A stretch of 64,000 bases of DNA from a virus. Location of the stretch: positions 10,648 through 74,647 of the IMG/VR virus record IMGVR_UViG_3300050821_007016; one strand, 5' to 3'. The notes under the pieces are model-generated. The model searched no databases, was not told the origin of the DNA, and was given only the letters and a program-made list of their open reading frames with translations. This document shows positions 3,759 to 42,141 of this stretch, one piece after another. Position numbers and translations under genes: made by a program. Within the stretch, counting starts at the first letter, position 1, and every line of letters starts with the position of its first letter.

Positions 3759-6700
3759 TCACCTTCCCGACGGCTCCCCACTTACCACGGTTTTTGCCGA
3801 GGCGGCAGTCACCGCCGTCGAGGCCGACGCCTGGGTGACCGTCGTGATGCCGGACGCCTGGGTGACGATGGTCGTGGCGTAGAACACCGAGACGGTTCGA
3901 GGCAGCGACCAGCCCTGCTCGAACGGCATCGCGCCGGCCGGGTTGCGGCCTCGCCGCGCGTACATGTCCGGCGCCCCGAAGACGGTAGGCGTCAGGGGCG
4001 GCGGCGGGATGAAGGCGCCGTCGACCGTCCAGACCGCCTGGATGGCCCCGTAGACGCGCTGGCGCGGCCTCTGGGGCGCGTCCGTCAGCTCCCAGCCTCG
4101 GTACACCCAGGTCGGAATCGACGCGTCGGTGGCCTCCGTACCGCGCGCCAGGGCGCCGGCCCGGTTGAATGGCTTCCGGTAGTGGATCGGAACCGGCTCG
4201 AAGCCCCAGATCGGCAGGGGCTGGGTGGCCTCGATGCCGTCCGCGCCGCGCGCCAGGGCGCCCGATCGCTCGGGTCGAGGATGAGGCGGCTGGACCGGCT
4301 GAACCTCAAAGCTGAACGGGAGGAACTGGAGGAACGGCTGAACCGGGTCGTTCCAGTCCCGGAACGGGTCGATCGCGCGCCGGTAGCGCTGTAGCGGTGG
4401 CTGAAAATCGAACGAGAACGGCGGCGTCGCGATTCGCTGGAACGTGAACTCGATCCCCTGATCGCCGGCCGCGATCGCGCCGGCCTTTTCCGGGCGAGGG
4501 TGGGGAGGCTGGATGCTCTGCTGCTCGAATCCGGCCGGGTAGAAGTTCACTAGCGGGAAGTCCGACGCGTCGACGCCGCGCGGCGCGATGGCGCCAGAAC
4601 GCGCCGGCCTCGGATAAGGCGGCTGCATCGACTGGACCTCGAACCCCCATCCTACCGGTGGCCCTGGCACCACGTAGACGCCCTCGGTGCCCTGGTCGCC
4701 CGCCATGATGGCGGCGGAGCGCTCCGGGCGAGGGTGGTTCGGCTGGTGCGGCACGCTCGGCCACCCATAAGGGAGGAAGTTGATCAGCGGGTACTCGCTG
4801 CCGTCGTCGCCGCGGGCGATCGCCGCCGAGTGCTGCTCCGGCCGCGGATGCGGAGGCTGGACCGGCTGCGCGTCGAACCCGAACGGGAAGAAATTGATCG
4901 GTGGTTGCTCGTTGCCGTCGTCCCATCGCGCCAGGGCGCCGGCCTTGATGAACCGGTGCGACAGCTGGACCTGCGGCTGATCGAAGCCCCACCCGCTGGT
5001 GGTCGGCGACGGCGGGATGAATGCAGCCTCGATCCCGGTGTCGCCGGGATCGAACGTCTTGCGGCGAACGCGAAACCAGGTCTGCGCCACGTCGTCGGTC
5101 CAGGGCTGGGTGCTTAAGATCGCGAAGGTGCTCTCGCCGTAGGCGCCCTGACCCCTGGTCGAAACCCGCCGGGCCATCGATGGCAGGATCGTCGGCTGAA
5201 ATGCCCACGCCGAGAGCGGAGGGGCGGGGAAGACCGGGTAGTCCTCCGCCTTGTCCTTGATGGCGGGGTAGCGCCCGGCGATCGTTCTCTTCAGCATCGG
5301 AAGGGTAGGGTCGAAGCCCCAGCCACTGGTCACCGGGACCGGCGCCATGAGCGGCGCCTGCGTGCCGGAGTCGCCGGGGTCGAACGGCTTCAGGCGGCGG
5401 CGGAAGAAGGTCTGCTGGGCGTCGTCGGCCCACGGCGAGGTGCTAAAGGCCACGAACTGGCTGTCGCCGAACGCCGCCTGCGAGCGCGCCGAGATTCGCC
5501 CGGCCATCGAGGGCTGCACGGACTGGGTCTCGAAGCCCCAGCCGGTGGTGAGCGGCGCCGGAGGAGGAATGAACACCGCCTCGTTGCCCTGGTCGCCGGC
5601 GGCGAGCGCGCCGCTCCGCTCCGGGCGCGGGTGCGGTGGTTGCGGAGGCTGAACGTCGATGAAGATCGGCAGCGTGAGCGCCAGGAACTCGCTGCGGCCC
5701 TTGATGCCGGGGTAGCGCTGCGCCGGGGGCACGCGTCGCAGCATCGGCAGCGACGCCTCGAAGCCCCAGCCGACCGGTGGCCCGGGCAAGACGTAGACGG
5801 CCTCGATGCCGGGTTCCCCGGCCATGATCGCTCCCGACTTCTCGCTCCGGGGATGCGGAGGCTGGAACGAGTACTCGAAGCCCCACGTGGTCAGGGCCGG
5901 CGGCGCGACGAGCACGCCCTCGATCCCAGAATCGCCGGCCATCACGGATCCGGACTTCTCCGGGCGCGGGTGCGGCGGCTGGACGGACTGCACCTCGAAT
6001 CCCCACGGGTAGAAGTTGATGAACGGGGCCTGGTTGCCATCGTCGCTTCGCGCGATCATCCCCGATCGCCGCGCCGCTATCGACGCTCGTGCCGGCGGCT
6101 GCGGCGGTTGCACGTCCCAGCCAGCGTTGATCCAGTTGATCAGTGGAAACTCGCTGCCGTCCTCGGAGGTCGTCATCAGCAGCATGCCGCGGCGAGCGAC
6201 CTTCGGCTGGAGGTAATACTCGAAGCCCCACGTCGTGGGCGGCGGGATCGGCGGGATGAACGGGGCCTCGATGCCGGGTTCCCCGGCCATGACGGCGCCG
6301 CTCCGCTCCGGCTTGGGATGCGGAGGCTGCACCGACTGCACCTCGGTGAACGGCGCCAGGACGAAGGCCGCGAACTCGCTGCGCCCCTTCGTCGCGGCGA
6401 CGCGCGCCTGCCTGACGCCGGGGTTGCGCGCGACGATCGGTAACGTGGGATCGAAGCCCCAGCCTGACGTGACCATCGCCTGCTGCGCCATCACGTTCTC
6501 GTTGCCCTGATCCCCGGCCATCAGCGCCCCCGCCTTCACGAAGGGCGACTGGCGGGTGCTGTACGGGGTCGGCGGCTGGAACGATTGAACCTCCCATCCC
6601 ATCGGGAAGAAGTTGACCAGCGCGCACTCGATGCCGTCCTCGCGCGGCATGATCCCGGCGCGCTTGGCGCGGAACGCCGGTGGCTGCACCGACTGCACCT

Positions 6701-7730
6701 CGAAGCCCACGTTCTGCCAGACGATCAGCGGCCACTCGATGCCGTCCTCCTTCGGTGCGATCGCGCCGATCGGTTTTCTCGCCGGCTTGGCAGGCGGCTG
6801 CGGAGGCTGGACCTCGAAGCCGACGTTCTGCCAGGGCGGGAAGATCGCGAACTCGGCCTTGCCCTTGATGCCCGGGTAGCGACGGGTGATGAGCGGCCTC
6901 TGCGACATCAGCGGCAGCGTCGGTTCGAAGCCCACGTTCTGCCAGTTGATCTTGACCTGCTCGATGCCGTCGTCGCCGCGCATGGTCGCCGCGCGCTGAC
7001 GGGCCTTCGGCGCCCTGTTCACCAGCGGGTTGCTCATGCCCGCGCCCGAGGACTCCCATCCCCAGATCGGCCCCTGCTGGATCAGCAAGGAGACGCCGAG
7101 CGACGTCTGGGTCGTGCCGAAAGTCCAGTTATTGGCTCCGGTGGCGCTGGCGCTCGACAGCGCGAGCGACGCCGCGCCGAATCCGAGCTGCGACGCCGTG
7201 CCCGCCACGGTCAGGATGCTCGTCATGCCCGTCGGTATCGTCACGGTGGTGGCGCCGAGCGCGCCCTCGAAGATGTAGCAGACGAGGGTGTCGTTGACGT
7301 TGCCCGCGCCCGGCGTGATGGTTGGCGACGGCGGGGTCGTGCTGGTCGCATTCAGCGACGTGGTGGGGCTGCCGTCGATCAGGGCCGCGCCCGCGCCCGC
7401 CCACTCCTCGAACGACCACTCGCCGCCGGCGGTCGAGGTCGTCGTCCAGGTGAAGGCGCCCGAGAACGATGCGTTCGGAGACGGCGCTACCTTGGTGAAG
7501 ATGGCCGCCGACGCCAACCCGCCGGACGCGGTCGTCGTGGTGGCGAGCGTCGTCGTCCACCCGCCCGGCGGGGTGATCGCGGTGGGCGCCGTCGCGCCGC
7601 CCACCAGAATCGTGACGATCATCAGGTTGCCGGCGGTGACGCTGCCATTGCTGGTCACGGTGATCGTCGTGACGCCGGACCCGATCGTGGCGTTGTTCTT
7701 CGTCGCGGCTACTATCGTCGGGTTCGGCAT
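3759..7730 (-). CDS. 1323-aa protein: ~220-aa Thr/Ser-rich beta domain followed by ~27 degenerate Pro-rich repeats
   Basis: Long ORF; repeat consensus WGFEVQSVQPPHPRPERSGAIMAGDQGIE. Confidence 0.85.
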   Translation of the reverse strand: MPNPTIVAATKNNATIGSGVTTITVTSNGSVTAGNLMIVTILVGGATAPTAITPPGGWTTTLATTTTASGGLASAAIFTKVAPSPNASFSGAFTWTTTSTAGGEWSFEEWAGAGAALIDGSPTTSLNATSTTPPSPTITPGAGNVNDTLVCYIFEGALGATTVTIPTGMTSILTVAGTASQLGFGAASLALSSASATGANNWTFGTTQTSLGVSLLIQQGPIWGWESSGAGMSNPLVNRAPKARQRAATMRGDDGIEQVKINWQNVGFEPTLPLMSQRPLITRRYPGIKGKAEFAIFPPWQNVGFEVQPPQPPAKPARKPIGAIAPKEDGIEWPLIVWQNVGFEVQSVQPPAFRAKRAGIMPREDGIECALVNFFPMGWEVQSFQPPTPYSTRQSPFVKAGALMAGDQGNENVMAQQAMVTSGWGFDPTLPIVARNPGVRQARVAATKGRSEFAAFVLAPFTEVQSVQPPHPKPERSGAVMAGEPGIEAPFIPPIPPPTTWGFEYYLQPKVARRGMLLMTTSEDGSEFPLINWINAGWDVQPPQPPARASIAARRSGMIARSDDGNQAPFINFYPWGFEVQSVQPPHPRPEKSGSVMAGDSGIEGVLVAPPALTTWGFEYSFQPPHPRSEKSGAIMAGEPGIEAVYVLPGPPVGWGFEASLPMLRRVPPAQRYPGIKGRSEFLALTLPIFIDVQPPQPPHPRPERSGALAAGDQGNEAVFIPPPAPLTTGWGFETQSVQPSMAGRISARSQAAFGDSQFVAFSTSPWADDAQQTFFRRRLKPFDPGDSGTQAPLMAPVPVTSGWGFDPTLPMLKRTIAGRYPAIKDKAEDYPVFPAPPLSAWAFQPTILPSMARRVSTRGQGAYGESTFAILSTQPWTDDVAQTWFRVRRKTFDPGDTGIEAAFIPPSPTTSGWGFDQPQVQLSHRFIKAGALARWDDGNEQPPINFFPFGFDAQPVQPPHPRPEQHSAAIARGDDGSEYPLINFLPYGWPSVPHQPNHPRPERSAAIMAGDQGTEGVYVVPGPPVGWGFEVQSMQPPYPRPARSGAIAPRGVDASDFPLVNFYPAGFEQQSIQPPHPRPEKAGAIAAGDQGIEFTFQRIATPPFSFDFQPPLQRYRRAIDPFRDWNDPVQPFLQFLPFSFEVQPVQPPHPRPERSGALARGADGIEATQPLPIWGFEPVPIHYRKPFNRAGALARGTEATDASIPTWVYRGWELTDAPQRPRQRVYGAIQAVWTVDGAFIPPPPLTPTVFGAPDMYARRGRNPAGAMPFEQGWSLPRTVSVFYATTIVTQASGITTVTQASASTAVTAASAKTVVSGEPSGR
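3880..7070 (-). repeat. Intragenic degenerate tandem repeats (~38-40 aa unit)
   Basis: Recurrent G[FW][ED]...QPPHPRPE...GD.G.E. Exact DNA copy ggcctcgatgccgggttccccggccatga near 5799 and 6264. Confidence 0.85.
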
Positions 7731-9114: not shown

Positions 9115-11115
9115 TCAGAGCTGCGGGAAGTTGAAGCCGCCCCGGATGTAGTTGTTGGCCGCGTTGGCGGTGTAAGGGACCGACCAGACGCCGCGGCCGC
9201 GGTTGCGGGCGTTGTTGATGAAGTCGATGGTGGTGCCGGCGCCGCCGATGCTGGTGCTGTAGCTGCCGAGGGTGCGGCCGGGCGCCGGGAATGGTTCGCC
9301 GGGCTGGCCGCTATTGATTCCCTGCGGATCGAGGGAGTTGCCGGAGAGCGTGAGGCCCGTGGCCTGATTGTCTATGCCGCCGAAGGAGATCGCGTCGCCG
9401 TTGCCGACCGCCGCGAGCGAGTTGGCCGCCAGCGTGACCGTGGTCGACGTGGCGCTGCTGGTGACGCCGAGGAACGTGTTGGTCGTGGCGTCGATGACGG
9501 TGTAGTTGTTCCCGGCGTTGGTTTGGATGAACGACGGCACCGAGGCGAAGTGCAGCACGGCGCTCGCCGTCGAGGTGGTGCCGTTGGTGATGGCGCTGGC
9601 CCCGGCCGTCTGGTTATAGACGATGTTGTTGGTGACGGTGTCCGAGGTCAGCGTGTGGAAGAGGGTCGCGGTGCCGCTGGAGCTGGCGTTGACGCTGATG
9701 GTCAGCGTGCCGTTCGCCCCGGCCGTGGTGAATCCGGACGCGGCCGTGACCGTCGCCGTGCCGTTGCCCGGCAGCCTGGCCGGGCACGAGATGATCATCC
9801 CGTTCGGCCAGCCAAGATTGTTGTAATCGTTGTTGCTGTTGTCGACGTTGGTGATGGTGTTCTGATTGAGGGTGAAGTTGCCGGTGACCTGGTAGCCGTT
9901 GCTGCTGTTGCCGTCCTGAACCTGGATGCCGAACCCCGAAAGGCTGGTGCTGATGCCGTTGGAGATGATGTTGTGGTCAATGGTTGAAGGTGCGCCGCCG
10001 TTGTTGAGCAGGCCCTCACCGTCCGACTCCGCCAACGCCCCGGTGATGTCGGTCGATTCCTGCACCACGTTGTAGGAGATGACGCTGGGGCCGATGCCGA
10101 TGTTGATGGCCCCCGCCGGTCGAATGAAGAGGTTGTCGTAGACGGTGCCGCCCGGGCGAATCTGCTCGCTGCTGGCAGGCTGCGAGCAGATGTTGTTTCG
10201 GAAATAACCCGGCCCGGTGCCGACCACCGCGATGTAGACGTTGTGGTTGAGGTTGCACATGATGGCGCCGGTGACGCTGGCGTTCCAGCCGTTGTGGTCG
10301 AACGTGCAGTCGTCGATCACCCAGTTGTTCTCGATGTTCGACAGGAAGATGCCCTGCGACTCGCCGGGCTGATCGTTGAGGTGCGAGTTGGCGTTGTAGT
10401 TGTCGACGAAGATGCACTTCCGGATCCATAGTCCGTTGAAGTCCAGCGGCTCCCAGATGATGCTGTCCCAGAAGAAGCGGAACAGGCAGTCCTCGAACAG
10501 GAATTTGCTTCCGACGCTGTTGTTGTTGTTGAAGAAGCCGTCGATCTCCAGCGTGGTATCGCCGGACACGAAGCCTCCGTTGTTGGGGTCGCGGCTATAG
10601 GCGTAGAAGTCCCAGCCGACGATCGCGACGTTGTTGCATTTCTGGAGGTTGTCCATGAAGATTATGGCGCCGCCCGCGCCGACGTGCGCGACGCTCGACT
10701 GGATGCTGGGTCGCGCTCCCGTGCCGTAGGTCGTGCAGACGATCATGCCGCTGGCGGTGTGGTCGCCGTAGACGGTGAACGCTGGCGAGATCACCGCGCC
10801 GGGGCCGGAGAAGCTGCCGAAGCTGCTTAAGTCGTCGTTCAGGAACGTGTCGCCCTGGTTGAGTAGCAGCCAGTCCGGCTTGCCGTCGCGGATTAACGAT
10901 AGCCCTTTGCTGATGGTTTTGACCGGACTGGCTTGTGTGCCGGGATTAGTGTCCAGACCCGCGTTGGCGACGTAGATTTGATTTGTCCCCGTATTGGCGG
11001 GGTTGTTCCCCTGCAAGACCGGCGCGGTCGGCGTGAACGTGGTGAAGCCGTTGTTGCCGGGCGCCTGCTGGACCGGAAACTGGATTATCGGGGCGAGAGG
11101 TCCGGTCCTGTACAT
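9115..11115 (-). CDS. Right-handed parallel beta-helix protein (DUF1565-like N-motif; depolymerase/adhesin-like)
   Basis: YVANAGLDTNPGTQASPVKTISKGL motif; Asn ladders (FDHNGW, NHNVY, NNI). Confidence 0.75.
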   Translation of the reverse strand: MYRTGPLAPIIQFPVQQAPGNNGFTTFTPTAPVLQGNNPANTGTNQIYVANAGLDTNPGTQASPVKTISKGLSLIRDGKPDWLLLNQGDTFLNDDLSSFGSFSGPGAVISPAFTVYGDHTASGMIVCTTYGTGARPSIQSSVAHVGAGGAIIFMDNLQKCNNVAIVGWDFYAYSRDPNNGGFVSGDTTLEIDGFFNNNNSVGSKFLFEDCLFRFFWDSIIWEPLDFNGLWIRKCIFVDNYNANSHLNDQPGESQGIFLSNIENNWVIDDCTFDHNGWNASVTGAIMCNLNHNVYIAVVGTGPGYFRNNICSQPASSEQIRPGGTVYDNLFIRPAGAINIGIGPSVISYNVVQESTDITGALAESDGEGLLNNGGAPSTIDHNIISNGISTSLSGFGIQVQDGNSSNGYQVTGNFTLNQNTITNVDNSNNDYNNLGWPNGMIISCPARLPGNGTATVTAASGFTTAGANGTLTISVNASSSGTATLFHTLTSDTVTNNIVYNQTAGASAITNGTTSTASAVLHFASVPSFIQTNAGNNYTVIDATTNTFLGVTSSATSTTVTLAANSLAAVGNGDAISFGGIDNQATGLTLSGNSLDPQGINSGQPGEPFPAPGRTLGSYSTSIGGAGTTIDFINNARNRGRGVWSVPYTANAANNYIRGGFNFPQL

Positions 11116-13445
11116 TCCCTGAGTGCCCTCGCCACGTCGTCGATCACGTCCTTCCAGTAGCCGGGCGTGTCGAACTCGCGCTGCCGAAACAGCCGAATCG
11201 AAGGGTACCACGGGCTGGCCTCGTTCCACGAGGCTCCCGGGTGCCAGCACATGAAGTGCCAGCTCGCGCCGTCGCGCTGCATCATCACCCACGTCGGCTT
11301 GCCCATCGCCCCGGCCAGGTGCGCCACCGCCGTGTCGACCGTGATCACCAGGTCGAGGTTGTCGATTAGCGCCGCCGTCTCCTCGAAGTTGGGCTCCTTC
11401 GACAGCAGGTCGCATATCTTGTGGCCATGCTCCTCGCGGCCATCGCCGACCATCAGGCTGACCAGCGCGTCGTCATTTTCGATCGCGCCCAGCAGCGGGA
11501 TGCAGTCCGAGAACCGCATCGACTTCATCCGGCCGTAGCGCTCCAGCCAGATGCTCTGCGTCTTGCGGATGCCCGATGACCAGCACAGGCCGATCTTGCG
11601 CCCCTTGACCTCGGCCAGCAGCTCGGCGAACCCCTGCGAGAGCTTGGGGTCCGCCTTGAGGTACGGTCCGTCCCACGGCACCGTGTCGATGTCGGTCCCG
11701 AACGCATAGGGGAGATCGCCGATCGGGACGTGGTAGTCGATCGTCGGCGGCAGGCCGACCACCCCGGGGTAGTCGCTCGCCATCGTCACGCACTCCACCT
11801 GCGGGAAGTTGCGCCGCGCCAGCGAGAGCATCTCGTCCCCGACCTCGTAGCGGACGTGGAAGCCGCGCTCGACCATCAGCGGGAAGTACCGCCACATCGA
11901 GATGTTGTCGCCGTAGCCGGCCTCCTGGTGGACGTGGATGACGGCCTTGCGCCCGTCCAGCTGCGCAGGCTGGTCGACGCTGCCCTCCCAGCGCGGCGCC
12001 AGGAAGCGATGGTGCGGCACATAGAGCGCGTACTGCGTGACCTCGTGCGGACCCCACACCGAGTGCTCCGCGAAGCTCTCCTTGTAGCGGCCGAGGCACT
12101 GCAGCGGCAGCGACCGGTTCCAGTGCGCCATCGGCAGGTTACGGCAGTTCAGCTCGATCGCCTTGTCGAAGTACTCGATCGCCTTCTCGTGGCGCGCGAG
12201 CCGGTACTCGATCATCGCCAACAGGTGCCACGCGTCGCCCTTGCGCGCGCCGACCTCCAGCATGGAGCGGCACATCTTCCGCACGGTGTCATAGTCGCGG
12301 GAGTCCAGCGCGATCACGCCGCGGTTCAGCAGCGCGTCGCAGAATTCATTCGGGTTGTCGCCTTTGAACGCAGCCTCGATCTGGCGGTCGTAGGCGCGGA
12401 TCGTCGCCTCGGTGTCCATCAAGTCGCTCTCGACTCCCCCCAGCGTCTGCCACGCCAGAGGGTTGTCCGGGGCAATCTCGGTGGCGATCTCCGCGTGGCG
12501 CCGCGCCGCCTTGATCGCGCCGGCCGCCACCATCGACTTCACCAGGTCGCAGCGGTGCTCGATGCATTGCGGGTCGGCGTCCAGCGCCATGAAGAACCAG
12601 TCGGCCGCGAAGCCGAACCGCTTCATCTCATGGGCGTTCGTCCCGAAGTTGGCGCAAGCTTCCGCGCGGGCGATCCGCCACTTGCCGCTCTTGAACGGCG
12701 GCTGCGTCAGGTACATCACCAGCCGGTACAGCCGGTCGGCCGCCAGCATGTTGCCTTCCTCGACGTGCCTCCTGGCGCGCAGGACCACCTGCTCCAGCGA
12801 GCTGACGTCCGAGGTCGGTCCCGTCATTCGAGTGAACCCGACCTGGTACTCGCAAAATTCGATCTCGGCCCCGACCGATAGCGCGTACTCCGCGACCAGC
12901 CCGCCTTTGCCGAGTATTTTTCTCTGTGGATAATCGTCGAGTAGGCTCATGCTGTCGTCCACCGCGACCATCGATTCCTCGCGCAGCGACGGCATGATCG
13001 CCATTAGCTCGTTGAAGTGGTGGACCTGCGAGACGGTCTCCGCAGACCAGTCGTGCGACGACGCGTCGAGGTAGAGCAGGTCGACCACGATCTCCGGTCC
13101 GGAGATGAGCTTGAGCCCTTGCACGCTGTCGATGTTCATGACCGTGACGTTCGGGCACAGCTTGCATGCCCGCGCTGCCTTCTCCGCGTCGATCTCGAAC
13201 GACATCGCGGTCGATGGCGGGTGCGTCTCGATGTACTTATCGAACAGGATCGTGCTGCAGCCATTGCCGGCCCAGTTGTCCGGCTCCTCGATGCAGCCGG
13301 TCTCGACGATCCGCACCTGGCGGTCGAACTTGTCGAGGTGCTCGAACATCCGACGGAACGACCCGTCCCTGCGGGTCGGCCGCCACTTGGCGAGCCTCGG
13401 CGCGGCGTACTCGTCGAACCACTTCCAGAACTCGGCTGACCTCAT
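11085..13445 (-). CDS. SAM methyltransferase + TPR + GT-B (GT9/FlmG-like) glycosyltransferase fusion
   Basis: IVETGC...DLLYLDA...VAVDD (class I MTase); TPR helices; EAGYGD, IGLCWSSG, LDLVITVDTAVAHLAGAMGKPTW, PWYPSIRLFRQ. Confidence 0.85.
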   Translation of the reverse strand: MRSAEFWKWFDEYAAPRLAKWRPTRRDGSFRRMFEHLDKFDRQVRIVETGCIEEPDNWAGNGCSTILFDKYIETHPPSTAMSFEIDAEKAARACKLCPNVTVMNIDSVQGLKLISGPEIVVDLLYLDASSHDWSAETVSQVHHFNELMAIMPSLREESMVAVDDSMSLLDDYPQRKILGKGGLVAEYALSVGAEIEFCEYQVGFTRMTGPTSDVSSLEQVVLRARRHVEEGNMLAADRLYRLVMYLTQPPFKSGKWRIARAEACANFGTNAHEMKRFGFAADWFFMALDADPQCIEHRCDLVKSMVAAGAIKAARRHAEIATEIAPDNPLAWQTLGGVESDLMDTEATIRAYDRQIEAAFKGDNPNEFCDALLNRGVIALDSRDYDTVRKMCRSMLEVGARKGDAWHLLAMIEYRLARHEKAIEYFDKAIELNCRNLPMAHWNRSLPLQCLGRYKESFAEHSVWGPHEVTQYALYVPHHRFLAPRWEGSVDQPAQLDGRKAVIHVHQEAGYGDNISMWRYFPLMVERGFHVRYEVGDEMLSLARRNFPQVECVTMASDYPGVVGLPPTIDYHVPIGDLPYAFGTDIDTVPWDGPYLKADPKLSQGFAELLAEVKGRKIGLCWSSGIRKTQSIWLERYGRMKSMRFSDCIPLLGAIENDDALVSLMVGDGREEHGHKICDLLSKEPNFEETAALIDNLDLVITVDTAVAHLAGAMGKPTWVMMQRDGASWHFMCWHPGASWNEASPWYPSIRLFRQREFDTPGYWKDVIDDVARALRECTGPDLSPR

Positions 13446-13960
13446 AGCACCCCGTCTCCCCCGGTGCTGAGCGCGCCAGTGCGGCCGACCCTGCGCTGGG
13501 TGTCGTCGTTGGCGAACCGCACCCCGCAGTGCGGGCACGCCTTCCACGACAGCTCGATCCGACCATCGCAGGAGAAGCAGACCGGGTCCGGCGCGCGGCC
13601 GCCCGGCAGTTTCGCGTCCTTCGGGTGGATATAGGTCTGGTTCTCGCCGACGAAGCCGTCGTCATAGTAGCGGACCTCGCCGGTCCCGGCGCAGCGCTTG
13701 CACTCCCAGCCGCGGCCCTTGCAGTCCGGGCACTCGCCCTTGACGTAGTGATGCCAGGGGCAGCCCAGCTTCTTGCCCATGACTATCACGTGGTCGGTGC
13801 CGGGCTCGTGCTTGGCGCAGCCGAAGTCGGCGTCGGTCTCGATCTTGAGCTGCTCGCACGCGCCCTTACCCTCGGCGCATTGCAGGTTGAAGATGCGGTC
13901 GCCGTTCTCGTAGTCGGTGACCCGCGCGGTGATCCAGTGCAGGCAGTCGGAGCAGCTCAT
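13442..13960 (-). CDS. Cys-rich protein with DnaJ-type CxxCxGxG zinc finger and zinc ribbon
   Basis: CPDCKGRG, CKRCAGTG, CFSC...CPHCG. Confidence 0.7.
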   Translation of the reverse strand: MSCSDCLHWITARVTDYENGDRIFNLQCAEGKGACEQLKIETDADFGCAKHEPGTDHVIVMGKKLGCPWHHYVKGECPDCKGRGWECKRCAGTGEVRYYDDGFVGENQTYIHPKDAKLPGGRAPDPVCFSCDGRIELSWKACPHCGVRFANDDTQRRVGRTGALSTGGDGVL

Positions 13961-14202
13961 TTCACCACCGTCAGAACGGCCTCTTCGGGGTTGACGTGCT
14001 GGTTAACCAGGTCCCGCCCGATCGCATAGGTCAGGATGCGCTCGATCGAATCCCTCTCTTGCTGGTGCAGGCAATTGTGGCCGAGCAGAAGGACCGAGTA
14101 GAACTTCCGTCTGTCCCCGTCGTCGGCGAACTGATCCGCCACCGCGCCCAGCAGAAGGGAAATGTCGGTATTGATTGATGCTTTTCGTTTTGCGTTGGCC
14201 AT
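13957..14202 (-). CDS. Hypothetical protein
   Basis: AGGAG RBS; ATGA overlap with the next gene. Confidence 0.6.
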   Translation of the reverse strand: MANAKRKASINTDISLLLGAVADQFADDGDRRKFYSVLLLGHNCLHQQERDSIERILTYAIGRDLVNQHVNPEEAVLTVVK

Positions 14203-14225
14203 CGTTCTTCTCCTTTGTTTGGGTT

Positions 14226-14534
14226 TCAGTAGCAGCGCCAAGCCTGCATGTGGATGCGCGAGTTAATGTAGTGCTCCGTCTCCGCCATCTCAGCCCGCCG
14301 CTCGTAGGGGACGCACGGCTTGCCGACGCACTTCAGGCAGATCAGCTTCATGCAGCCGCGGCAGATGTCGACGTGGTCCATCATGACGCGGCGGGACGGA
14401 AACGCCGTGAGGGCTTGGCAGTGGCTGCATGTCGAGGAGTGATCCTCGATCTCAGTCCCGGTCTCGCCGTCGAAGAAGACGTTGATGCCGCCGGGTCTGA
14501 ACTTGAGCAGTGCAGGCAAGAGATCGACCCCCAT
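14226..14534 (-). CDS. Cys-rich hypothetical protein
   Basis: CSHC, CRGC, CLKC...C motifs; start uncertain. Confidence 0.6.
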   Translation of the reverse strand: MGVDLLPALLKFRPGGINVFFDGETGTEIEDHSSTCSHCQALTAFPSRRVMMDHVDICRGCMKLICLKCVGKPCVPYERRAEMAETEHYINSRIHMQAWRCY

Positions 14535-14572
14535 AAAAAGCTGCGGCCCCGTGTTCTTTCACACAGGGCCGC
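14535..14572 (-). terminator. Rho-independent terminator after 14603..15085
   Basis: gcggccc/gggccgc stem followed by a T-tract on the minus strand. Confidence 0.55.
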
Positions 14573-14602: not shown

Positions 14603-15085
14603 TCAGCGCTCGATGAAGGAGATGGTGCCGACCGCCGAGGCCGCATAGCCCGAGGTGAGCGAGGCGCATCGGAGGCCAAGGGCGCTCGCCGACGCCGGGA
14701 GGATGATGTTGTCTCCGTCATCCAAGGCGCGCCAGCGGTAGCTTCCGCGCTGGTTGATGCCCCATTGCTTCAGGTTGAGGCCGAGGCCGCCGGTCGTGTA
14801 GTTGGTCGGCTCGGCGGTCGCCGCGTTCATGAACAGCGTGGCCGCGACGTAGTCGGCCGGGTCAAGCAGGTTGGCCGCGAGCGTGGTGCCGGTCATGCCC
14901 GCCGTCGAGGGGGCGCGGGAGAGGTCCCAGAGCATCGCCGCGTCCTGGGAGGCGTAGACGCCGAACTGTCCAAGCTCCACCTCATAGATTTGCGCCCGCT
15001 TCGTGCCGCCGCCCCAGAGGATGCCGCCGGTCTTCAGGACGGTGCCAACGCCGTTGTAGAGCACGTAAGCAGAGAAGTTTGCCAT
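14603..15085 (-). CDS. Putative small virion subunit (paralogue of 30626..31324)
   Basis: 160 aa, GAGG RBS, followed by a terminator; motif GINQRGSYRWRALDDGD. Confidence 0.75.
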   Translation of the reverse strand: MANFSAYVLYNGVGTVLKTGGILWGGGTKRAQIYEVELGQFGVYASQDAAMLWDLSRAPSTAGMTGTTLAANLLDPADYVAATLFMNAATAEPTNYTTGGLGLNLKQWGINQRGSYRWRALDDGDNIILPASASALGLRCASLTSGYAASAVGTISFIER

Positions 15086-20009: not shown

Positions 20010-20969
20010 TCAGTTGTTGCCAGCGTCGCTGGTCGAGCTGATCTTGACGAGTTCGCCGACCAGGCCGGTCGACCTGGCGAAGAACTTAGTTTCCACCGCG
20101 AGGCTCGCGGTGATCGTGGTCGAGCTGACCACCGTGTTGTTGTTGACGACCATCGTGCCGCCGGTGCCGCCGGAGCCGGTGAGGTTCGCCGTGATGACGG
20201 TGCCGGCCACCACGTTCGTGCCGGTCAGCTGGTCGCCGACCGCGAAGGTGCCGGTCGCCGTACCGATCGTCAGCGTGCCGTAGGTGCCCGAGATGGTCTC
20301 GGAGACCGCAGTGATCTCGCCGACGTTGAGGGAGTAGGTGCCGACGCCGCCCGGGGTTCCGGTCAGCTGCGAGACGATCTGTGGTGCCGGAGCGGTCGGG
20401 ATGCCGGTGCCCGAGATCGAGCCGCCGACCACGACCGTGCCGGAGCCGACGACGGTGACCGTCATCACGTTGCCCGAGACCGAGCCGGTGACCGAGAAGG
20501 TCGAGGCCGCGATCGAGGAGGCGGTCGCCGAGGCCCCGCCGAAGATGGTGCCGGCAGTCGCGAACGCCACCTTGCCGGTGGCGACGAAGGCGAACGCCTT
20601 CTGGCCGACCTCAGCCTCGGTGGTGCCGTCGTTCTGGACGAGGAAGTCGCCCGCGATCTGCAGCGCGGTCTGCGCGCCGGGCTGGACCTGCATGCCGGCG
20701 TCCGAGAGGAACGTGGTGTTCAGCGCCTGCTGGTTCTTCATCAGGAAGCCGTTCGGCGCGCCGTTGCCGTTGCTGTTGGCCAGCGTCGGTCCGCCGTTGG
20801 GGTCGAGCGGCTGCGTCACCCAGGCGAAGCGCCCGACGAACAGCGAGGTGCCCGAGACCAGCCCGCCGGGGCCGGCTGGATACGAGAAGATCGGGTTCTG
20901 GCTCCAACGGTCGCCCGCCACGCCGATCGCCGGCTGAAGGAAAACCTGCGTCTGAAAGCCGCTGGCCAT
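20010..20969 (-). CDS. Capsid cement/decoration protein with tandem inserted modules
   Basis: FQTQV...GVAGD...NP...VGRFAW...GDF...VETKF...GELVKIS; lies between protease and capsid. Confidence 0.8.
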   Translation of the reverse strand: MASGFQTQVFLQPAIGVAGDRWSQNPIFSYPAGPGGLVSGTSLFVGRFAWVTQPLDPNGGPTLANSNGNGAPNGFLMKNQQALNTTFLSDAGMQVQPGAQTALQIAGDFLVQNDGTTEAEVGQKAFAFVATGKVAFATAGTIFGGASATASSIAASTFSVTGSVSGNVMTVTVVGSGTVVVGGSISGTGIPTAPAPQIVSQLTGTPGGVGTYSLNVGEITAVSETISGTYGTLTIGTATGTFAVGDQLTGTNVVAGTVITANLTGSGGTGGTMVVNNNTVVSSTTITASLAVETKFFARSTGLVGELVKISSTSDAGNN

Positions 20970-21006: not shown

Positions 21007-23190
21007 TCACAGGGTCGAGATGTTCTCCAGGCCGGGGGCCAGCTTGAGCGCCTTGTCCACCGCGTCCATCGCGATCGTCTGCGAGGAGTGATGCTCGGGC
21101 GCCCGCGCGCCGGCCTTCGGCAGCGTCTTGAGGATCGGCAGCAGCGCGTCAGCGTGGAGCGTCTTGGCGCCGTCCACGCTACGCATGACCAAGGCGTGGC
21201 GGTAGACGTCGGCCGCGCTGTCGAACGCCATCTTGGAGTCGATCTCGCCGACCCACGGCGCGACCTCCGCGATCGCCACCCTGACGCCGCGCTCGTTGTC
21301 CTTGAGTGCCTTCAGCTGCTTCTGGAACTCAGCGGCCTGCACCTGCAGCGCCGCGTCCATCGCCGGCTTGCTCACCATGTCCTTGTCCTTCTCGTCTTTG
21401 TCCGGGAACTCGTCGCCGCCAGCCGGGCTGGCCGAGAGGTTGCTCGACGGTCCGCCCGCGGCGATGTTCTGCCATTCGGGGGGCATCATGTCGCAGACCT
21501 TCTGGATGTCGTCCTCGCCCATGCCCTTCTCGCGCAGGAAGGCTTTCATCGGCTCGGCGTCGAAACCCTTCTTCTCGCCGGACTCGGCGCCTGGCGGGAA
21601 ATCCTTCTTCTGGGGCTCTGGCTTGTCGATCGGGCCGACCTTCGCGGCCTCCTCGACCTCCTCCGGCTTGCCGCCGAACGGCTCGTCAGAAGCTTCCATG
21701 CCGCTGAAGGCGTCGACGGCCTTAGCGAGGTCCTCCATCGAGGCGTCGAGCGCTATGCCCTTGCGGAGCTTGCCCTCGGCCGCCTTGCGGATGCCGGCCA
21801 GCAGGTCCTTCTTGCTGGCGTTGAAATTCTTGGTGGTGAGCGACTTGAACAGATCGACCGGCAGCGTGATCTTCTGGTCCATCGCGATTTGCGGCGCGAT
21901 CTTCGCGGCCACGTGGTTGAGGACAACCGCTGCAAACCTGGTCGGCTTAGCCATCTCGCTCTCCTTGAGTGCCTCGTCGCCGACGACCACGTCGGGTCCG
22001 GCTCGTCCGTCTTCCACTAACGCTACGTGATTGAAAACGATGTCCCGCATCACTCCGTCGTAGTCGGTACCACGGAAATTTCCCGGTGTCATGTCCGGCT
22101 TGTAGTGGTAGCCGGCCGACAGCTCCTGCTGCCTTCCGGTCTCTATCGCGTCGATCGCCTCCTGCGAGTTAACGAACAGCGAGTTGTCGAGGTACTCGCC
22201 ATCGAACTCCGCGTCGGTCCCGAGCGAGCCAACGGTCTCATACGGGTGATGGTCGTCCGCGCTTACGGGCACGTGTTTGATAAGCAATTGCACGCCATTC
22301 AGCGTCGGCGCGGCCTTCGCAAGCTCCTCCGGGTCCCGTAGCAAAAAGTAGACGCGGTCGGGCTCCAGCCCGATCTCTTCCCAGCCCGGAATCTCCTCGC
22401 CGCGGTAGGGGCAAACGTTGGCCTTCGAGACGTGGGTTCGCTTGACGATCAGCCGGCCGTCGCGGGTCTTCTCGCGGACCGAGTCGCGGTCCATCGCGAT
22501 CTCGAATCGCGAATCAGCGCGCGGGCCGAACGACCTGTCCATCGCCATCGCGGAGTCCTGCGCCTGACTGACTCGATCTGAGTCACTCTTCTTCGGCGTC
22601 TGCGAGTTGCAGCACGCCTTCGGCTCGATCGGCCGGTCCTCGTGGAAGTAATCGCCGAGCTTCTCGTTCAGCTCCTCGTACCAGCCGCACTTCTCGTTGC
22701 CGCCGTAGAAGCAGTTCTCGCAGCGCACCGCGCGCTCGACGTAGCCGACCTCCTCCTTGGACGCGGAACCCCCCGCGCCCTCGGCCAGCTTGCCGGCGTG
22801 CTCCTTGACGACGCCTGGGTCCGGCGTGGCGTCCGGCGTGGGCCAGGACGCGAACTCGCCGCACGACCCGCAGTCTTCGCCGCCATCAACGGCCTCCTGC
22901 GATCCCAGCACCACGCAGAGGTCGCAGCCCTTCTTGTGCTTGCCCTCCGCCGGCATCGCGTCCTTCGGAACCAGCATCCGGCAGGCGTAGCACTGCGCGT
23001 GCTGGTCGCGCATCTCCGGCGCCGCGTTCTTCGGCGGCTCCATATACTCGAAGATCGAGCGGTCGTTCTTGGGGGCCGATTCGTCGGCGGCGACGAACTC
23101 CTCGCCCACCTTCTTCGGAATGCCGAGCGTCGAGTGGCCGTGCGCTGCGGCCTCCATCGCGTTATGCTGCTTCTCGCTCACTGACGGCAT
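21007..23190 (-). CDS. DUF2213 prohead protease/scaffold with N-terminal Cys-rich extension
   Basis: SKANVCPYRGEEIP...HVPV...ELSAGY...NHVALVEDGRAGPDVVVGD. Confidence 0.9.
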   Translation of the reverse strand: MPSVSEKQHNAMEAAAHGHSTLGIPKKVGEEFVAADESAPKNDRSIFEYMEPPKNAAPEMRDQHAQCYACRMLVPKDAMPAEGKHKKGCDLCVVLGSQEAVDGGEDCGSCGEFASWPTPDATPDPGVVKEHAGKLAEGAGGSASKEEVGYVERAVRCENCFYGGNEKCGWYEELNEKLGDYFHEDRPIEPKACCNSQTPKKSDSDRVSQAQDSAMAMDRSFGPRADSRFEIAMDRDSVREKTRDGRLIVKRTHVSKANVCPYRGEEIPGWEEIGLEPDRVYFLLRDPEELAKAAPTLNGVQLLIKHVPVSADDHHPYETVGSLGTDAEFDGEYLDNSLFVNSQEAIDAIETGRQQELSAGYHYKPDMTPGNFRGTDYDGVMRDIVFNHVALVEDGRAGPDVVVGDEALKESEMAKPTRFAAVVLNHVAAKIAPQIAMDQKITLPVDLFKSLTTKNFNASKKDLLAGIRKAAEGKLRKGIALDASMEDLAKAVDAFSGMEASDEPFGGKPEEVEEAAKVGPIDKPEPQKKDFPPGAESGEKKGFDAEPMKAFLREKGMGEDDIQKVCDMMPPEWQNIAAGGPSSNLSASPAGGDEFPDKDEKDKDMVSKPAMDAALQVQAAEFQKQLKALKDNERGVRVAIAEVAPWVGEIDSKMAFDSAADVYRHALVMRSVDGAKTLHADALLPILKTLPKAGARAPEHHSSQTIAMDAVDKALKLAPGLENISTL

Positions 23191-23203
23191 GGCGTCGCGT
23201 TTA

Positions 23204-23425
23204 TCACGCGACCCGATTCCGCACAAACCGGATGCGCTGCTCTCCGGGCAGCTTCGCCCTCGGGTTGCCCTCGTCGTCCAGGATCGACTGCACCAGCATG
23301 TCCTTGATGATGACCTTCATCAGCCTCTGGACCAGGCGCCGCCGGGAAATCTGACGGATGCGGCAGCAGGCATCGATGTAGTTGGCCTGTTCCTCGCTCA
23401 GAGTCATTTTGACCCTGATGTCCAC
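23204..23425 (-). CDS. Small putative ribbon-helix-helix protein
   Basis: VKMTLSEEQANYIDACCRIRQISRRRLVQRL; GGAGG before GTG; start uncertain. Confidence 0.45.
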   Translation of the reverse strand: MDIRVKMTLSEEQANYIDACCRIRQISRRRLVQRLMKVIIKDMLVQSILDDEGNPRAKLPGEQRIRFVRNRVA

Positions 23426-30625: not shown

Positions 30626-31324
30626 TCAGGTCCCCGTGATGTAGCGCCGCACCTTGGTCAGGTAGCTCTCGTGGTACGGCTTGTCCTCGTCCTCGTCGCC
30701 GTCCCAATACTCTGTCTCGTCGTAGTCGTCCGACCACGCAGAGGCCGAGGATGCGATCGCTTCCTGCTTCTGGCGCTCGCGCTCCTGCCGTGCCTTGAGG
30801 CTGTTGTCCGGCTCAAAGAAACTAACGACCGGCGGATCGTAGACGCCGTCGACGATTCGCCACGTCTCGATCAGCTGGATCGGCGGGCCATTGTCGACCT
30901 TGTCGAGGCACAACATATCGATGTGGACCGGAATCCTGGACAGCTCCGGCCGCGTGTAGTCGATCGCGATGTTGATGGGGCTGGTCGGCACCGACAGCAG
31001 CATATCCTCGTCCGCCAGCGCTCGCCATCGATAGCAACCGCGTATGTTAATGCCCATGTAGTGCAGGTCCGGCTCGGCTACGTTCAGGCGCCTCACGTGG
31101 ATGAGCGCGGCGCCGTCGGAAGCCAGCAGCGCGCGGCCCTTCGGGTCGAGCGGCAGCTCGAAGCCGACCATCATGTCGTAAATCTTGCGGCGCAGGTACG
31201 GGTGCGGCGAGGGCAGCCGCACCAGCTCGTTCGCCGGCACCATCGGAACGGCGAACGTCGCCGCGGTCGCTGCGGCGGCCAGCAGGAAGAAGCGTCGGCT
31301 GATCTGGACGGGCTCGTTGCTCAT
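30626..31324 (-). CDS. Twin-arginine-signal protein, paralogue of 14603..15085
   Basis: SRRFFLLAAAATAATFA leader; GINIRGCYRWRALADED. Confidence 0.75.
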   Translation of the reverse strand: MSNEPVQISRRFFLLAAAATAATFAVPMVPANELVRLPSPHPYLRRKIYDMMVGFELPLDPKGRALLASDGAALIHVRRLNVAEPDLHYMGINIRGCYRWRALADEDMLLSVPTSPINIAIDYTRPELSRIPVHIDMLCLDKVDNGPPIQLIETWRIVDGVYDPPVVSFFEPDNSLKARQERERQKQEAIASSASAWSDDYDETEYWDGDEDEDKPYHESYLTKVRRYITGT

Positions 31325-33813: not shown

Positions 33814-34464
33814 TCATGTCGTGCTCCAGGCGAACGTGGTGGTCGGGCCGGCATTTATCATCATCACCTGCTCGAAGCTGTAGTTGTACTCCTTGAGCAG
33901 CGCCAGCGCGGCCTCGCGAATCTTGATGGCTTTGCGGTTGTTAGCGATCGATTCCTCGGCCCTGGCAGCGCTCGTCTGCAGCGCCCGCGCGAGCGGGTCC
34001 TCTCCGTCGCCCTTGTGCTTGCGCTTGAGGCGCTCGACCATGCCGTGGGCCGTCTTGACGCAGCGCTCCAGATCGGAGCAGGCCTTCCTCGACTTGCCCA
34101 GCTCGTCCTGGATGCCGGCGGCCACCACACGCAGCACGTCGATCTTCTCCGGGTCCTTGCTCGGGTGGAAGCCGCTCTGCTGGAACTGCTGCACCAGCTG
34201 GTTGAGCGCCTCGGCGATCAGGCCCAGCGCCGCCGGCCGCGTCTGGTCCGGCTCGGGCTCCTCGGCCACGCCCGTGTCGTCAAACTTCTTGCGCTTGCCG
34301 CTGTTCGTAAGGATCGCGTAGGCCAGCGCCACCTTGGCGAAGGCTTCCTCGCTGCCCCCAGTGTCGGGGTGGGTCTCCATGCATCGCTTGCGGTAGGCGG
34401 CGCGGATCGCCGGCTTGCGCGCGTTCGGCTCCAGGCCCAGCTCCTCGTAGGGGTTCCAGGTCAT
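33814..34464 (-). CDS. J-domain (DnaJ-like, type III) protein
   Basis: NPYEELGL...IRAAYRKR...HPDTGGSEEAF...AYAIL...RKKFD. Confidence 0.88.
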   Translation of the reverse strand: MTWNPYEELGLEPNARKPAIRAAYRKRCMETHPDTGGSEEAFAKVALAYAILTNSGKRKKFDDTGVAEEPEPDQTRPAALGLIAEALNQLVQQFQQSGFHPSKDPEKIDVLRVVAAGIQDELGKSRKACSDLERCVKTAHGMVERLKRKHKGDGEDPLARALQTSAARAEESIANNRKAIKIREAALALLKEYNYSFEQVMMINAGPTTTFAWSTT

Positions 34465-34558
34465 TTGCTTCCCAATTTCCCTAACGCCCAAAAGAAAACG
34501 CAGACAGCTGCGGCCACACAAAACGCCATCCCTACGTCATGAAATGCCTGAGGCCAGG

Positions 34559-40312: not shown

Positions 40313-40646
40313 CGTTCGGGCGCACGTACAGCCAGCGCCGCTCGATAGGGCGGCCTTCCACGCTGGCCCGATTGATACCCTGGAGCATCCCCTGGCTGAT
40401 CCCCCGGTCGCAATAAACCACCGTCGCCTCGGCGGCGATCCCCCAGGCCAGCCCAGCCTCAATCCCGAGCGCGCGCTCCTCGGGCCGGGCGTCGTCAAGA
40501 ATCCCCGGCCACAAGAGGTGACTCGCGAGTGGGCTTTCGTTTCGCAGCAGGCTGTCGAGCATCGCCTCCCGCGCGTACTGCTTGTTTCGTTCCGTTTCCA
40601 TTGGCGTGCTGCCGCGAAACGGCGACTCGAGGATTACGCGTCGCAT
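40293..40646 (-). CDS. DUF4406/DUF7768-like (nucleoside deoxyribosyltransferase-fold) protein
   Basis: VILESPFRG...ESPLASHLL...LDD..PEER..GI..GLAW...VVY.DRGIS.GM. Confidence 0.7.
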   Translation of the reverse strand: MRRVILESPFRGSTPMETERNKQYAREAMLDSLLRNESPLASHLLWPGILDDARPEERALGIEAGLAWGIAAEATVVYCDRGISQGMLQGINRASVEGRPIERRWLYVRPNEKAGAT

Positions 40647-41952
40647 CCTTGCCTCCCTTTCGTGCTTTGGTGATCTCGGCGAACGTGCGGCCATCGCCGG
40701 CCAGGACAGCTTCGGCCTTGGCGAAGGTCTGCCAGCGCTCGATGCAGACGTCGACATAAGCCGGGTTGATCTCGATCGCGATCGCGTAGCGGTTCATCAT
40801 CTCGGCTGCGATGATCGTGGTGCCGCTGCCGGCGAATGGCTCATAGACATAGTTGCCGGGCTTGCTGTTGTTCTGGATCGGGCGGCGCATGCACTCGATC
40901 GGCTTTTGGGTGCTGTGGCCTGTCTCCGAAGCCCGGTGTTCGATGTCCCACATCGTAGTCTGCTTGCGATCTCCGGACCACGCGCCCGTGGCGCCTTTGC
41001 GAACCAGATACCAGCACGGCTCGTGAGCCCAATGGTAGTCGCCTCGGCCGATGACCATCCGTCCTTTATTCCAGATAATCTGAGCGCGGACCTCGAAGCC
41101 CACAGATCGAAAAGAAAGATCGACGCTGCTGGCATGCCGACCGGCATGCCAGCAGTAAGCGACGTTGCCAGGAAACAGACTCCATGCCTCTCGCCAGTCC
41201 GATTGATCGTCGTTCTCGACTTTTCCGATCGCTCTCGCGCCGATTGGCTTGTCCGCTTTCCCGCTTCTTAGACGCTGAAAACCCCCATTGAGTGTTCGGC
41301 CGGCTTCGTTGCGCCAGTTTGCATCATACTCAACGCCATAGGGAGGATCGGTCACCATCAGATGCGGCTTCTTGCCATCCAGCACGCGCTCGACGTCCTC
41401 GGTCTTGGTGCTGTCGCCGCATAAGATCCGATGCTTGCCCAGCTGCCACAGATCGCCGACGCGGCTGATTGGTTTGACCGGCGGCTCCGGCGTGGCTTCG
41501 GGATCGGCGCCGTTCGGCACCGACAGAAACGATACCAGTTGCACATCATCGAAGCCGAGCAGCGGCATTTCGTAGCCGGCCAGCGACAGCTCGCTCAGTT
41601 CAATCCGCAGCAATTCTGGTGACCATGTCGACAGCAGCGCATAGCTGTTGTCCTTGATCCGATAGGCCCGCTTCTGCTCCTCGCTCCAGCCGCGCGCCAC
41701 TACGACCGGGTATTTCGCGAAAGCATTTTTCTCCGCGGCCAGCCGGCGGCCGTGGCCGTAGATGATCACGCCTTCCTCATCGACCAGGATCGGCGAGGTA
41801 ACGCCGTCGTCCTTCATCGAGCCCGCGATCAGATCGACCTGCTCTGGCGAATGCTGCCGCGGATTCCCGGGATACGGGATGATGCGCTCCAGCGCCCACA
41901 GCTCGGTCTTTGACGCAGGCCACGACTCTTCCATCGCCTTCGGTTTTTTCAC
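40495..41952 (-). CDS. ParB-N domain + N6-adenine/N4-cytosine DNA methyltransferase
   Basis: PYPGNPRQHS...GHGR; TDPPYG; HSTQKP; EPFAGSGTT. Confidence 0.92.
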   Translation of the reverse strand: MKKPKAMEESWPASKTELWALERIIPYPGNPRQHSPEQVDLIAGSMKDDGVTSPILVDEEGVIIYGHGRRLAAEKNAFAKYPVVVARGWSEEQKRAYRIKDNSYALLSTWSPELLRIELSELSLAGYEMPLLGFDDVQLVSFLSVPNGADPEATPEPPVKPISRVGDLWQLGKHRILCGDSTKTEDVERVLDGKKPHLMVTDPPYGVEYDANWRNEAGRTLNGGFQRLRSGKADKPIGARAIGKVENDDQSDWREAWSLFPGNVAYCWHAGRHASSVDLSFRSVGFEVRAQIIWNKGRMVIGRGDYHWAHEPCWYLVRKGATGAWSGDRKQTTMWDIEHRASETGHSTQKPIECMRRPIQNNSKPGNYVYEPFAGSGTTIIAAEMMNRYAIAIEINPAYVDVCIERWQTFAKAEAVLAGDGRTFAEITKARKGGKDATRNPRVAVSRQHANGNGTKQAVRAGGDARQPAAKRKPTRESPLVAGDS

Positions 41953-42141
41953 AGCGGATACCTCTGCGCGGAGTAATAGACCCTCGGCTTGCGCCGCCTC
42001 GGTGGCTTGTAGCTCATCAGGATAGCGCCGCGTCGCGCCAAGAGTAGAAGTGCAGGTCATCACGAAAAACGACCAAACGACCATCCTCAACATCATATGC
42101 CGCGCGATAACCGCGAACAATTGCAATCAATTTCCACAACA

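Follow-up and report, generated by a model that had tools for sequence, protein, structure and literature searches.

A predicted methyltransferase–tetratricopeptide repeat–GT9-like glycosyltransferase fusion and its five-gene module in the late structural operon of a phage

Protein glycosyltransferases with a GT9-like or repeat-guided organization have been described in several systems. TibC is a GT9-like cytoplasmic protein O-heptosyltransferase that uses host ADP-heptose and carries an Asp base after the first strand; this catalytic base, D110, was assigned in the TibC literature by superposition on WaaC. FlmG, the flagellin O-glycosyltransferase of Caulobacterales, binds its acceptor through tetratricopeptide repeats (TPRs), selects the donor, CMP-pseudaminic or CMP-legionaminic acid, through a GT-B domain, and has been reported to be confined to Caulobacterales. 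In mycobacteriophages, phage-encoded glycosyltransferases modify virion proteins with host sugar donors (Freeman et al., 2023, as cited in PMC12619734). Here, we analyzed a phage gene for a fusion of methyltransferase (MTase), TPR, and glycosyltransferase (GT) domains, the product of which is herein referred to as P0001. The gene lies in a stretch of 64,000 nucleotides (the window), corresponding to bases 10648-74647 of the complete virus record IMGVR_UViG_3300050821_007016 in IMG/VR, which is 74,647 bp long and has direct terminal repeats.

The open reading frame (ORF) for P0001 was found on the minus strand at exactly the positions given in a first-pass annotation that had been made from the nucleotide sequence (Table 1). 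P0001 is real and well conserved, and it is probably active as a bifunctional enzyme. With moderate confidence, we read it as a protein glycosyltransferase of the cytoplasm that is guided by its TPRs and coupled to a sugar O-methyltransferase, acting on a virion protein encoded in its own gene module and using a host donor, possibly ADP-heptose. According to this model, the enzyme would be soluble and would be produced in the late phase of infection. Its central TPR array would bind a phage-encoded structural protein, with two small zinc-ribbon proteins acting as adaptors or chaperones, and the C-terminal GT9-like GT-B domain would move a sugar from a host-made nucleotide sugar to this acceptor protein. 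The N-terminal COMT-type MTase would then O-methylate the attached sugar with S-adenosylmethionine (SAM), so that the virion surface would finally carry a methylated glycan.

The triple architecture proposed initially, with an MTase domain, TPRs, and a GT-B/GT9-like domain, was confirmed for all three parts by family and fold matches. An AlphaFold2 (AF2) model of P0001, built on an alignment of homologs, had a predicted local distance difference test score (pLDDT) of 91.7 and a predicted template modeling score (pTM) of 0.83. In a Foldseek search with the whole model, SPINDLY and OGT ranked first (8dti, E 6e-12 and below) because they have the arrangement of TPRs and a GT-B domain in common with P0001. 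These top ranks agree with the earlier suggestion that the architecture is that of TPR-guided protein O-glycosyltransferases, and they match the published logic of FlmG. No degeneration of the catalytic residues was seen: in 60 full-length homologs that are 41-94% identical, the putative catalytic and donor-site residues are invariant.

By model score, fold, and C-lobe motif, P0001 is a member of the GT9 family. Among representative PDB chains, residues 477-786 matched 3tov (Z 18.0), WaaF (1psw, Z 17.1), TibC (4rap, Z 16.9), and WaaC (2h1f, Z 15.8). The Pfam model Glyco_transf_9 (PF01075) scored 29.5 bits on P0001 versus a curated cut-off of 22, with a match restricted to residues 684-718, and the same model matched 59 of the 60 homologs. 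Nine residues of this domain are invariant: H506, G510, G512, D513, K641, S642, D704, T705, and H709. In a profile alignment, the segment vDtavahlagamgkp was aligned to vDTGLSHLTAALDRP of WaaC (C-lobe, chain residues 234-276). The D-T-G-x-x-H-L donor-site motif of the GT9 C-lobe is therefore represented in the form VDTxxxHL, its D704, T705, and H709 being among the invariant residues. D513, located in the sequence HVHQEAGYGD, follows the first N-lobe strand and falls at D13 of WaaC by the aligned ranges (model residues 501-785 to WaaC residues 1-320); it may be the counterpart of the catalytic base, D13 in WaaC and D110 in TibC. For the middle part of P0001, matches were found to TPR_1 and other Pfam TPR families (E 4.7e-9) and to consensus-TPR (CTPR) structures (E 2e-37). 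The TPR domain of OGT (1w3b) was a fold match to the same part (Z 14.1), and helices assigned by DSSP span residues 217-479.

In its predicted mode of action, P0001 is closest to FlmG and to OGT and SPINDLY, in which the protein is chosen by the TPRs and the sugar by the GT-B domain, and it also resembles TibC and AAH. Like TibC and AAH of the BAHT family, it has a GT9-like GT-B catalytic domain (4rap, root-mean-square deviation 3.0 over 254 residues). Unlike them, it has a TPR array and a fused MTase, and it shows no sign of a dodecamer. BAHT enzymes have a four-Cys iron finger, and no invariant or nearly invariant Cys was found in the GT-domain alignment of P0001. No autotransporter acceptor was matched by Pfam or PHROGs among the neighboring genes scanned, which are of phage structural type. 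Because both the iron-finger Cys cluster and the autotransporter are missing, P0001 is not a BAHT member. WaaC, WaaF, and other GT9 enzymes (PF01075) provide the best fold matches (Z 15.8-18.0) and share with P0001 the family model, above its cut-off, and the C-lobe VDTxxxHL motif; WaaC and WaaF are single-domain enzymes acting on lipid A-Kdo, whereas P0001 is a fusion with TPRs and an MTase in a phage structural operon. FlmG, compared by its description, has the same order of TPRs and GT-B domain; P0001 differs in its extra N-terminal MTase and in the lack of a flagellar context, no flagellar genes having been seen among the window ORFs scanned. The overall TPR and GT-B arrangement is also that of OGT and SPINDLY (GT41). 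The GT41 domain PF13844 had no hit in P0001 or in the 60 homologs, so P0001 is not a GT41 enzyme, and GT9 enzymes lead the domain-level fold search. The mycobacteriophage system has hosts from Actinobacteria and separate glycosyltransferase genes and, as far as could be checked, neither a TPR-GT9 fusion nor a five-gene module. Neither the database matches nor the accessible literature showed an MTase fusion of this kind, a GT9-type catalytic domain encoded in the structural operon of a phage, or a mobile five-gene module.

The N-terminal domain has the fold of COMT and of sugar O-methyltransferases, which, unlike P0001, are not fused to a glycosyltransferase. Residues 7-211 matched COMT (5zy5, Z 14.7), SpnH (4cdz, Z 13.6), CalS11 (3tos, Z 13.3), and MeT1 (6g7d, Z 13.2). 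The motifs ETGC, DLLYLD, and VAVDD, noticed initially, were located as VETGC at residues 47-51, DLLYLD at 122-127, and VAVDD at 160-164. The domain has a Rossmann-like MTase fold with a Gly-rich SAM loop, in which GCST of P0001 is aligned to GYSA of COMT, and with conserved acidic residues. Little or no variation was found at E48, T49, G50, G62, S64, D127, D163, and D164, of which E48-T49-G50, D127, and D163-D164 are among the invariant columns. The proposed comparison with Methyltransf_24 (PF13578) had a divided outcome: P0001 itself had no Pfam methyltransferase match at E<=1, and 55 of the 60 homologs matched this model (best E 1.6e-8). In a PDB sequence search, no solved MTase relative was detectable above E 0.1 significance.

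In three related phage loci (L021, L023, and L025), the homologs of P0001 begin at approximately residue 215 and thus lack the fused MTase domain. Directly upstream of each of them, a separate gene for an FkbM-family methyltransferase of 235-262 amino acids (aa) was found (E 1e-13 to 1e-18). This substitution of FkbM for the fused Methyltransf_24 domain is, judging from the family matches, a non-orthologous displacement. By clustering, the FkbM family is present in four of the 28 loci compared, abutting the enzyme gene in them. In the unrelated Manatee Spring podovirus MW202512.1 (L144, 6551-9984), a gene for a distant TPR-GT is located two genes past the major capsid gene and is followed by an FkbM methyltransferase gene and then by a galT-like gene. 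Since one MTase family is swapped for another beside the same glycosyltransferase, methylation and glycosylation would occur on one product. The COMT/sugar-O-methyltransferase fold suggests that the methyl group is placed on a hydroxyl of the sugar. The initial claim that the attached sugar becomes methylated is supported as regards the coupling of the two activities, which is backed by the FkbM replacement.

The donor had been attributed to the host because no sugar-synthesis genes were visible. In agreement with this, PF01370, PF13580, and PF01041 had no hits in this genome, and a host-derived donor is therefore reasonable. On the grounds of the GT9/TibC fold, ADP-heptose is the leading candidate. 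ADP-heptose is a common metabolite in Gram-negative hosts, and its supply by such hosts would explain a phage without sugar genes. The large terminase of the phage shares 52-56% identity with the terminases of Burkholderia, Bordetella, and enterobacterial myophages, which weakly suggests a Gram-negative proteobacterial host. Five relatives encode nucleotide-sugar epimerases or dehydratases of the short-chain dehydrogenase/reductase (SDR) type. In four of these phages (L024, L145, L146, and L147), the SDR gene adjoins a gene for a second, shorter TPR-GT9-like paralog of 463-495 aa, which is 21-26% identical to P0001. Because relatives encode other nucleotide-sugar enzymes, the donors may differ among members of the family, or some phages may extend the glycan.

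The fusion gene sits translationally coupled in the late structural operon. Its ATG at 13445 forms an ATGA overlap with the stop codon of the ORF upstream and lies where the homologs have their conserved N-terminus, M1 being nearly invariant among them. An alternative GTG start at 13547 would yield an 820-aa form; the 786-aa form was preferred because of the ATGA overlap and the conserved start. It is one of a long series of genes with the same orientation, among them those for a minor head protein (20010-20969) and the head maturation protease (21007-23226). These same-strand head genes and the complete virus record with direct terminal repeats bear out the assumption that the enzyme is phage-encoded.

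For the analysis of gene linkage, the plus-strand ORFs of 28 loci were clustered, the enzyme being present in all 28. Four partner families were common to 19-23 of these loci, and capsid-region families to only 6. The enzyme and its four partners form a five-gene module that moves between phages with unrelated other structural genes. The first partner is a zinc-ribbon family of about 168 aa, found in 22 loci and abutting the start of the enzyme gene; its Cys pattern is conserved, and its representative in the window had only weak Pfam zinc-ribbon matches. The second, a Cys-rich family of about 102 aa, is located upstream of the enzyme in 23 loci. In both of these small proteins, the Cys patterns with their CxxCxG pairs are conserved. 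A small specificity factor encoded in cis with a protein glycosyltransferase has a precedent in the literature, GlfM with Maf-2. A putative 94-aa ORF between the two Cys-rich genes (13957-14241, minus strand) has a lower GC content at third codon positions (0.72) and has no counterpart in most related loci.

The third partner, a 160-aa jelly-roll protein, had been named as a candidate substrate. Its relatives are 41-65% identical in 19 loci and were found upstream of the enzyme in 19 of the 28 loci by clustering and in more by tblastn. The enzyme gene is located 1-3 kb downstream in 28 of the 32 viral loci with close relatives of this protein, and 3 of the remaining 4 loci stop at a contig edge; the candidate is therefore backed by tight synteny in 28 of 29 informative loci. 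The AF2 model of the 160-aa protein is an all-beta jelly roll (pLDDT 82), which resembles small viral jelly-roll capsid or cement proteins with modest scores (Z 7-8.8) and also uncharacterized phage proteins. A distant homolog is encoded two genes past the probable capsid gene in the myovirus MW202566.1 (Manatee Spring; L143, 6917-7360). T97, which adjoins a low-confidence loop (98-102), is the only residue with a hydroxyl group that is invariant in the jelly-roll protein. It was considered as a mark of the enzyme-linked subfamily and rejected; what sets this subfamily apart is an insertion of 3 residues and the DDGDN motif alone. A 232-aa ORF elsewhere in the window (30626-31324, minus strand) shares with the 160-aa protein its most conserved motif, INxRGxYRWRAL.D.D, with identity at 16 of 36 positions (pairwise E 1e-6), and may encode a diverged paralog of it.

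The fourth partner is a large repeat protein, the gene for which is located at a median distance of 2.5 kb downstream of the enzyme and is directly adjacent to it in L005, L006, and L008. In the window, this 1323-aa protein has about 27 Pro-rich repeats of ~38 aa (GWEVQPxQPPHPRPERxGA...GDDGxE) after a Ser/Thr-rich N-terminal domain. The ~38-aa repeat was found in proteins of 800-1600 aa in at least 20 related phage loci (L002-L025) with 41-69% GC. The neighboring proteins of 160, 212, 215, 232, 665, and 1323 aa had no match in Pfam or PHROGs. The acceptor of P0001 is most likely a product of the conserved module, either the jelly-roll or the large repeat protein. Two other substrates proposed in the first-pass annotation are not conserved with the enzyme: a homolog of ORF 7751 is located near it in one related locus only (L025), and a homolog of ORF 8454 in none. 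These two ORFs are alike in the C-terminal tail only, and the assignment of ORF 8454 as a paralog of the N-terminus of the 1323-aa protein was unsupported (E 3.2).

The full three-domain architecture was found in approximately 66 protein clusters of 730-810 aa. Relatives at 38-55% identity are encoded in 27 IMG/VR contigs, many of them 62-74 kb long, with 41-69% GC, and only distant, partial relatives were found in cultured phages. Among bacterial genomes representing species, TPR-GT9 relatives at 26-38% identity are encoded by at least 596 stretches, none of which includes the MTase. A search for prophage copies in ~185,000 species genomes likewise revealed only such distant bacterial TPR-GT relatives. 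Of 151 alphaproteobacterial genomes sampled, 66 have TPR-GT9 relatives, with as many as 16 matches in a single genome; the annotation of these relatives names them only as TPR proteins. Because these cellular relatives are distant and lack the MTase, the phage fusion is, by sequence comparison, a distinct branch of a very large, uncharacterized cellular TPR-GT9 family. No name reading FlmG was found among the ~215 relatives listed, most of which are unnamed. Some cellular TPR-GT9-like proteins reach 1300-2000 aa and have several GT9-like domains (loci L060-L139; genomes G001-G155).

Several observations weigh against glycosylation and methylation of a module-encoded virion protein with host ADP-heptose. 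All members of the enzyme family are metagenomic, and similarity to solved GT9 enzymes and O-methyltransferases at the sequence level is marginal (E ~0.1 when the domains were searched separately against PDB). With regard to the donor, a GmhA-like gene (SIS_2) was found in none of 25 related phage records, a PseB-like dehydratase is encoded by the L028 phage, and in L024 (2803-8294) the pair of the second TPR-GT paralog and the SDR gene, together with a DegT aminotransferase gene, is located directly upstream of the module. With regard to the acceptor, no conserved Ser/Thr was found in the 38-aa repeat (consensus F.NF.P.GWEVQP.QPPHPRPER.GA...GDDG.E, 204 units). In distant relatives of the jelly-roll protein, which probably lack the enzyme, T97 is likewise frequent (85 of 124). 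The wider jelly-roll family has 924 representatives, only 15 of them below 1e-30, and thus far outnumbers the enzyme family (a few tens); most of its members therefore probably function without the enzyme.

A more specific version of the same explanation can be offered only tentatively and is itself rather doubtful. It holds that the five genes are a mobile 'glyco-appendage' module of tailed phages, in which a virion protein dedicated to this role, of the jelly-roll or repeat type, is O-heptosylated by the TPR-GT9 part and methylated by the fused MTase, with the zinc-ribbon proteins as cis-encoded specificity adaptors. If true, it would be the first system for O-heptosylation of proteins in a virus, and P0001 would be the first fusion of a glycosyltransferase with a methyltransferase to place a methylated glycan on virions; TibC-type protein heptosylation would be extended beyond autotransporters.

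Among the explanations that place the target outside the virion, modification of the host surface has to be considered first, although we regard it as unlikely. The enzyme could alter lipopolysaccharide (LPS) core or O-antigen, capsule, flagellin, or pilin, and thereby change a receptor, block superinfection, or aid release, like the seroconverting phage glycosyltransferases. Such a role would be consistent with the GT9 fold, best known from the LPS core heptosyltransferases WaaC and WaaF, with NCBIfam matches of the same kind, with the modification of flagellins by TPR-GT enzymes such as FlmG, and with an early region that looks temperate or lambdoid in style and includes ERF, YqaJ, and RusA. 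However, the gene is coupled in the late structural operon and is not beside integration or immunity genes, it is co-transferred between phages with genes of phage structural type, and neither membrane segments nor partners of the Gtr type were observed. The idea of flagellin or pili as targets, raised in the first-pass annotation, found no support in this operon position or in the cellular relatives: in all five bacterial genomes tested, the flagellin genes are located on contigs other than those with the relatives.

Less likely again is glycosylation of a non-structural cytoplasmic target, such as a zinc-ribbon or host protein, with a regulatory or takeover function in the style of OGT and SPINDLY. 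The first ranks of these two enzymes in the whole-model search would fit such a function, as would the zinc-ribbon genes, which are the tightest-linked neighbors of the enzyme, and the numerous cellular TPR-GT9 paralogs, which suggest many protein-specific enzymes. Against it stand the late placement in a structural operon and a linkage that includes the jelly-roll protein and the giant repeat protein. Sugar methylation, moreover, is more typical of surface glycans.

It is very improbable that P0001 is mainly an assembly chaperone or scaffold, which would use its TPRs on the fiber or decoration proteins of the module and for which catalysis would be dispensable. TPR proteins are frequently chaperones, and the module contains DnaJ-type CxxCxGxG zinc-finger motifs, but the invariance of the putative active-site residues in both enzyme domains and the presence of a separate MTase gene that makes up for the lost fused MTase argue for catalysis. 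Glycosylation and methylation of phage DNA or another non-protein molecule, for which the known phage GT-B enzymes that glycosylate DNA bases could be cited, is hardly credible in view of an MTase fold that is not of the DNA methylase type, the separate N6/N4 DNA methylases of this phage, the lack of a hydroxymethyl-pyrimidine pathway among the ten early-region proteins scanned with Pfam, and the TPR array and structural-operon position of the enzyme.

Should P0001 glycosylate and methylate a virion protein as proposed, it would be of interest beyond this phage, since glycosylation of phage-particle proteins is documented for mycobacteriophages and hardly explored in other phages. P0001 is a compact test case, with acceptor binding, sugar transfer, and sugar methylation predicted on one polypeptide and a short list of candidate acceptors encoded alongside, and it could plausibly be reconstituted in laboratory Escherichia coli, which makes ADP-heptose. 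It would also provide a functional handle on the very large uncharacterized bacterial TPR-GT9 family. A methylated virion glycan could affect stability, adsorption, or recognition, and could serve glyco-engineering of phage particles.

Table 1. Positions of the fusion gene, its domains, and associated features. Positions refer to the window unless a related locus is named.
Feature	Position	Strand	Details or basis
MTase-TPR-GT9 fusion gene	11085..13445	-	786 codons, protein P0001; ORF and translation, full-length homologs, AF2 model
Class I SAM-dependent O-methyltransferase-like domain	12810..13445	-	Residues 1-212; fold matches, Methyltransf_24, phrog_24975 (E 9e-32)
TPR array	12012..12809	-	Residues 213-478, about 14 helices; Pfam TPR families, consensus-TPR structures
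GT-B, GT9-like domain	11088..12011	-	Residues 479-786; GT9 fold matches, PF01075
172-aa Cys-rich zinc-ribbon protein	13442..13960	-	CxxCxGxG pairs; stop overlaps enzyme start
102-aa Cys-rich protein	14226..14534	-	STCxHCQ...CRxCM...CLxCxGxPC; conserved Cys pattern
Terminator-like hairpin between the 160-aa gene and the Cys-rich gene	14543..14572	-	12-bp stem, 9 GC pairs, T-rich tail
160-aa jelly-roll protein, candidate acceptor or partner	14603..15085	-	Synteny, AF2 all-beta model
1323-aa Pro-rich repeat protein, downstream module member	3759..7730	-	Homologs in 22/28 loci
FkbM methyltransferase gene, L021	9270-10058		
FkbM methyltransferase gene, L023	3140-3847		
FkbM methyltransferase gene, L025	9285-9995		
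Other window genes named in the text	33814-34521, 40495-42126, 44626-45456, 45463-46146	-	
Other window genes named in the text	50485-52061, 56658-57491	+	

The hairpin of Table 1 is a strong one, and a comparable hairpin with a U-tail was found in L003, L021, and L025. On one reading, such a hairpin would fit the production of an abundant jelly-roll protein followed by a low level of the enzyme. Other genes found in the window encode a J-domain (DnaJ) protein, two N6/N4 DNA methylases, RusA, the recombination pair ERF and YqaJ, and a DUF5131 protein.

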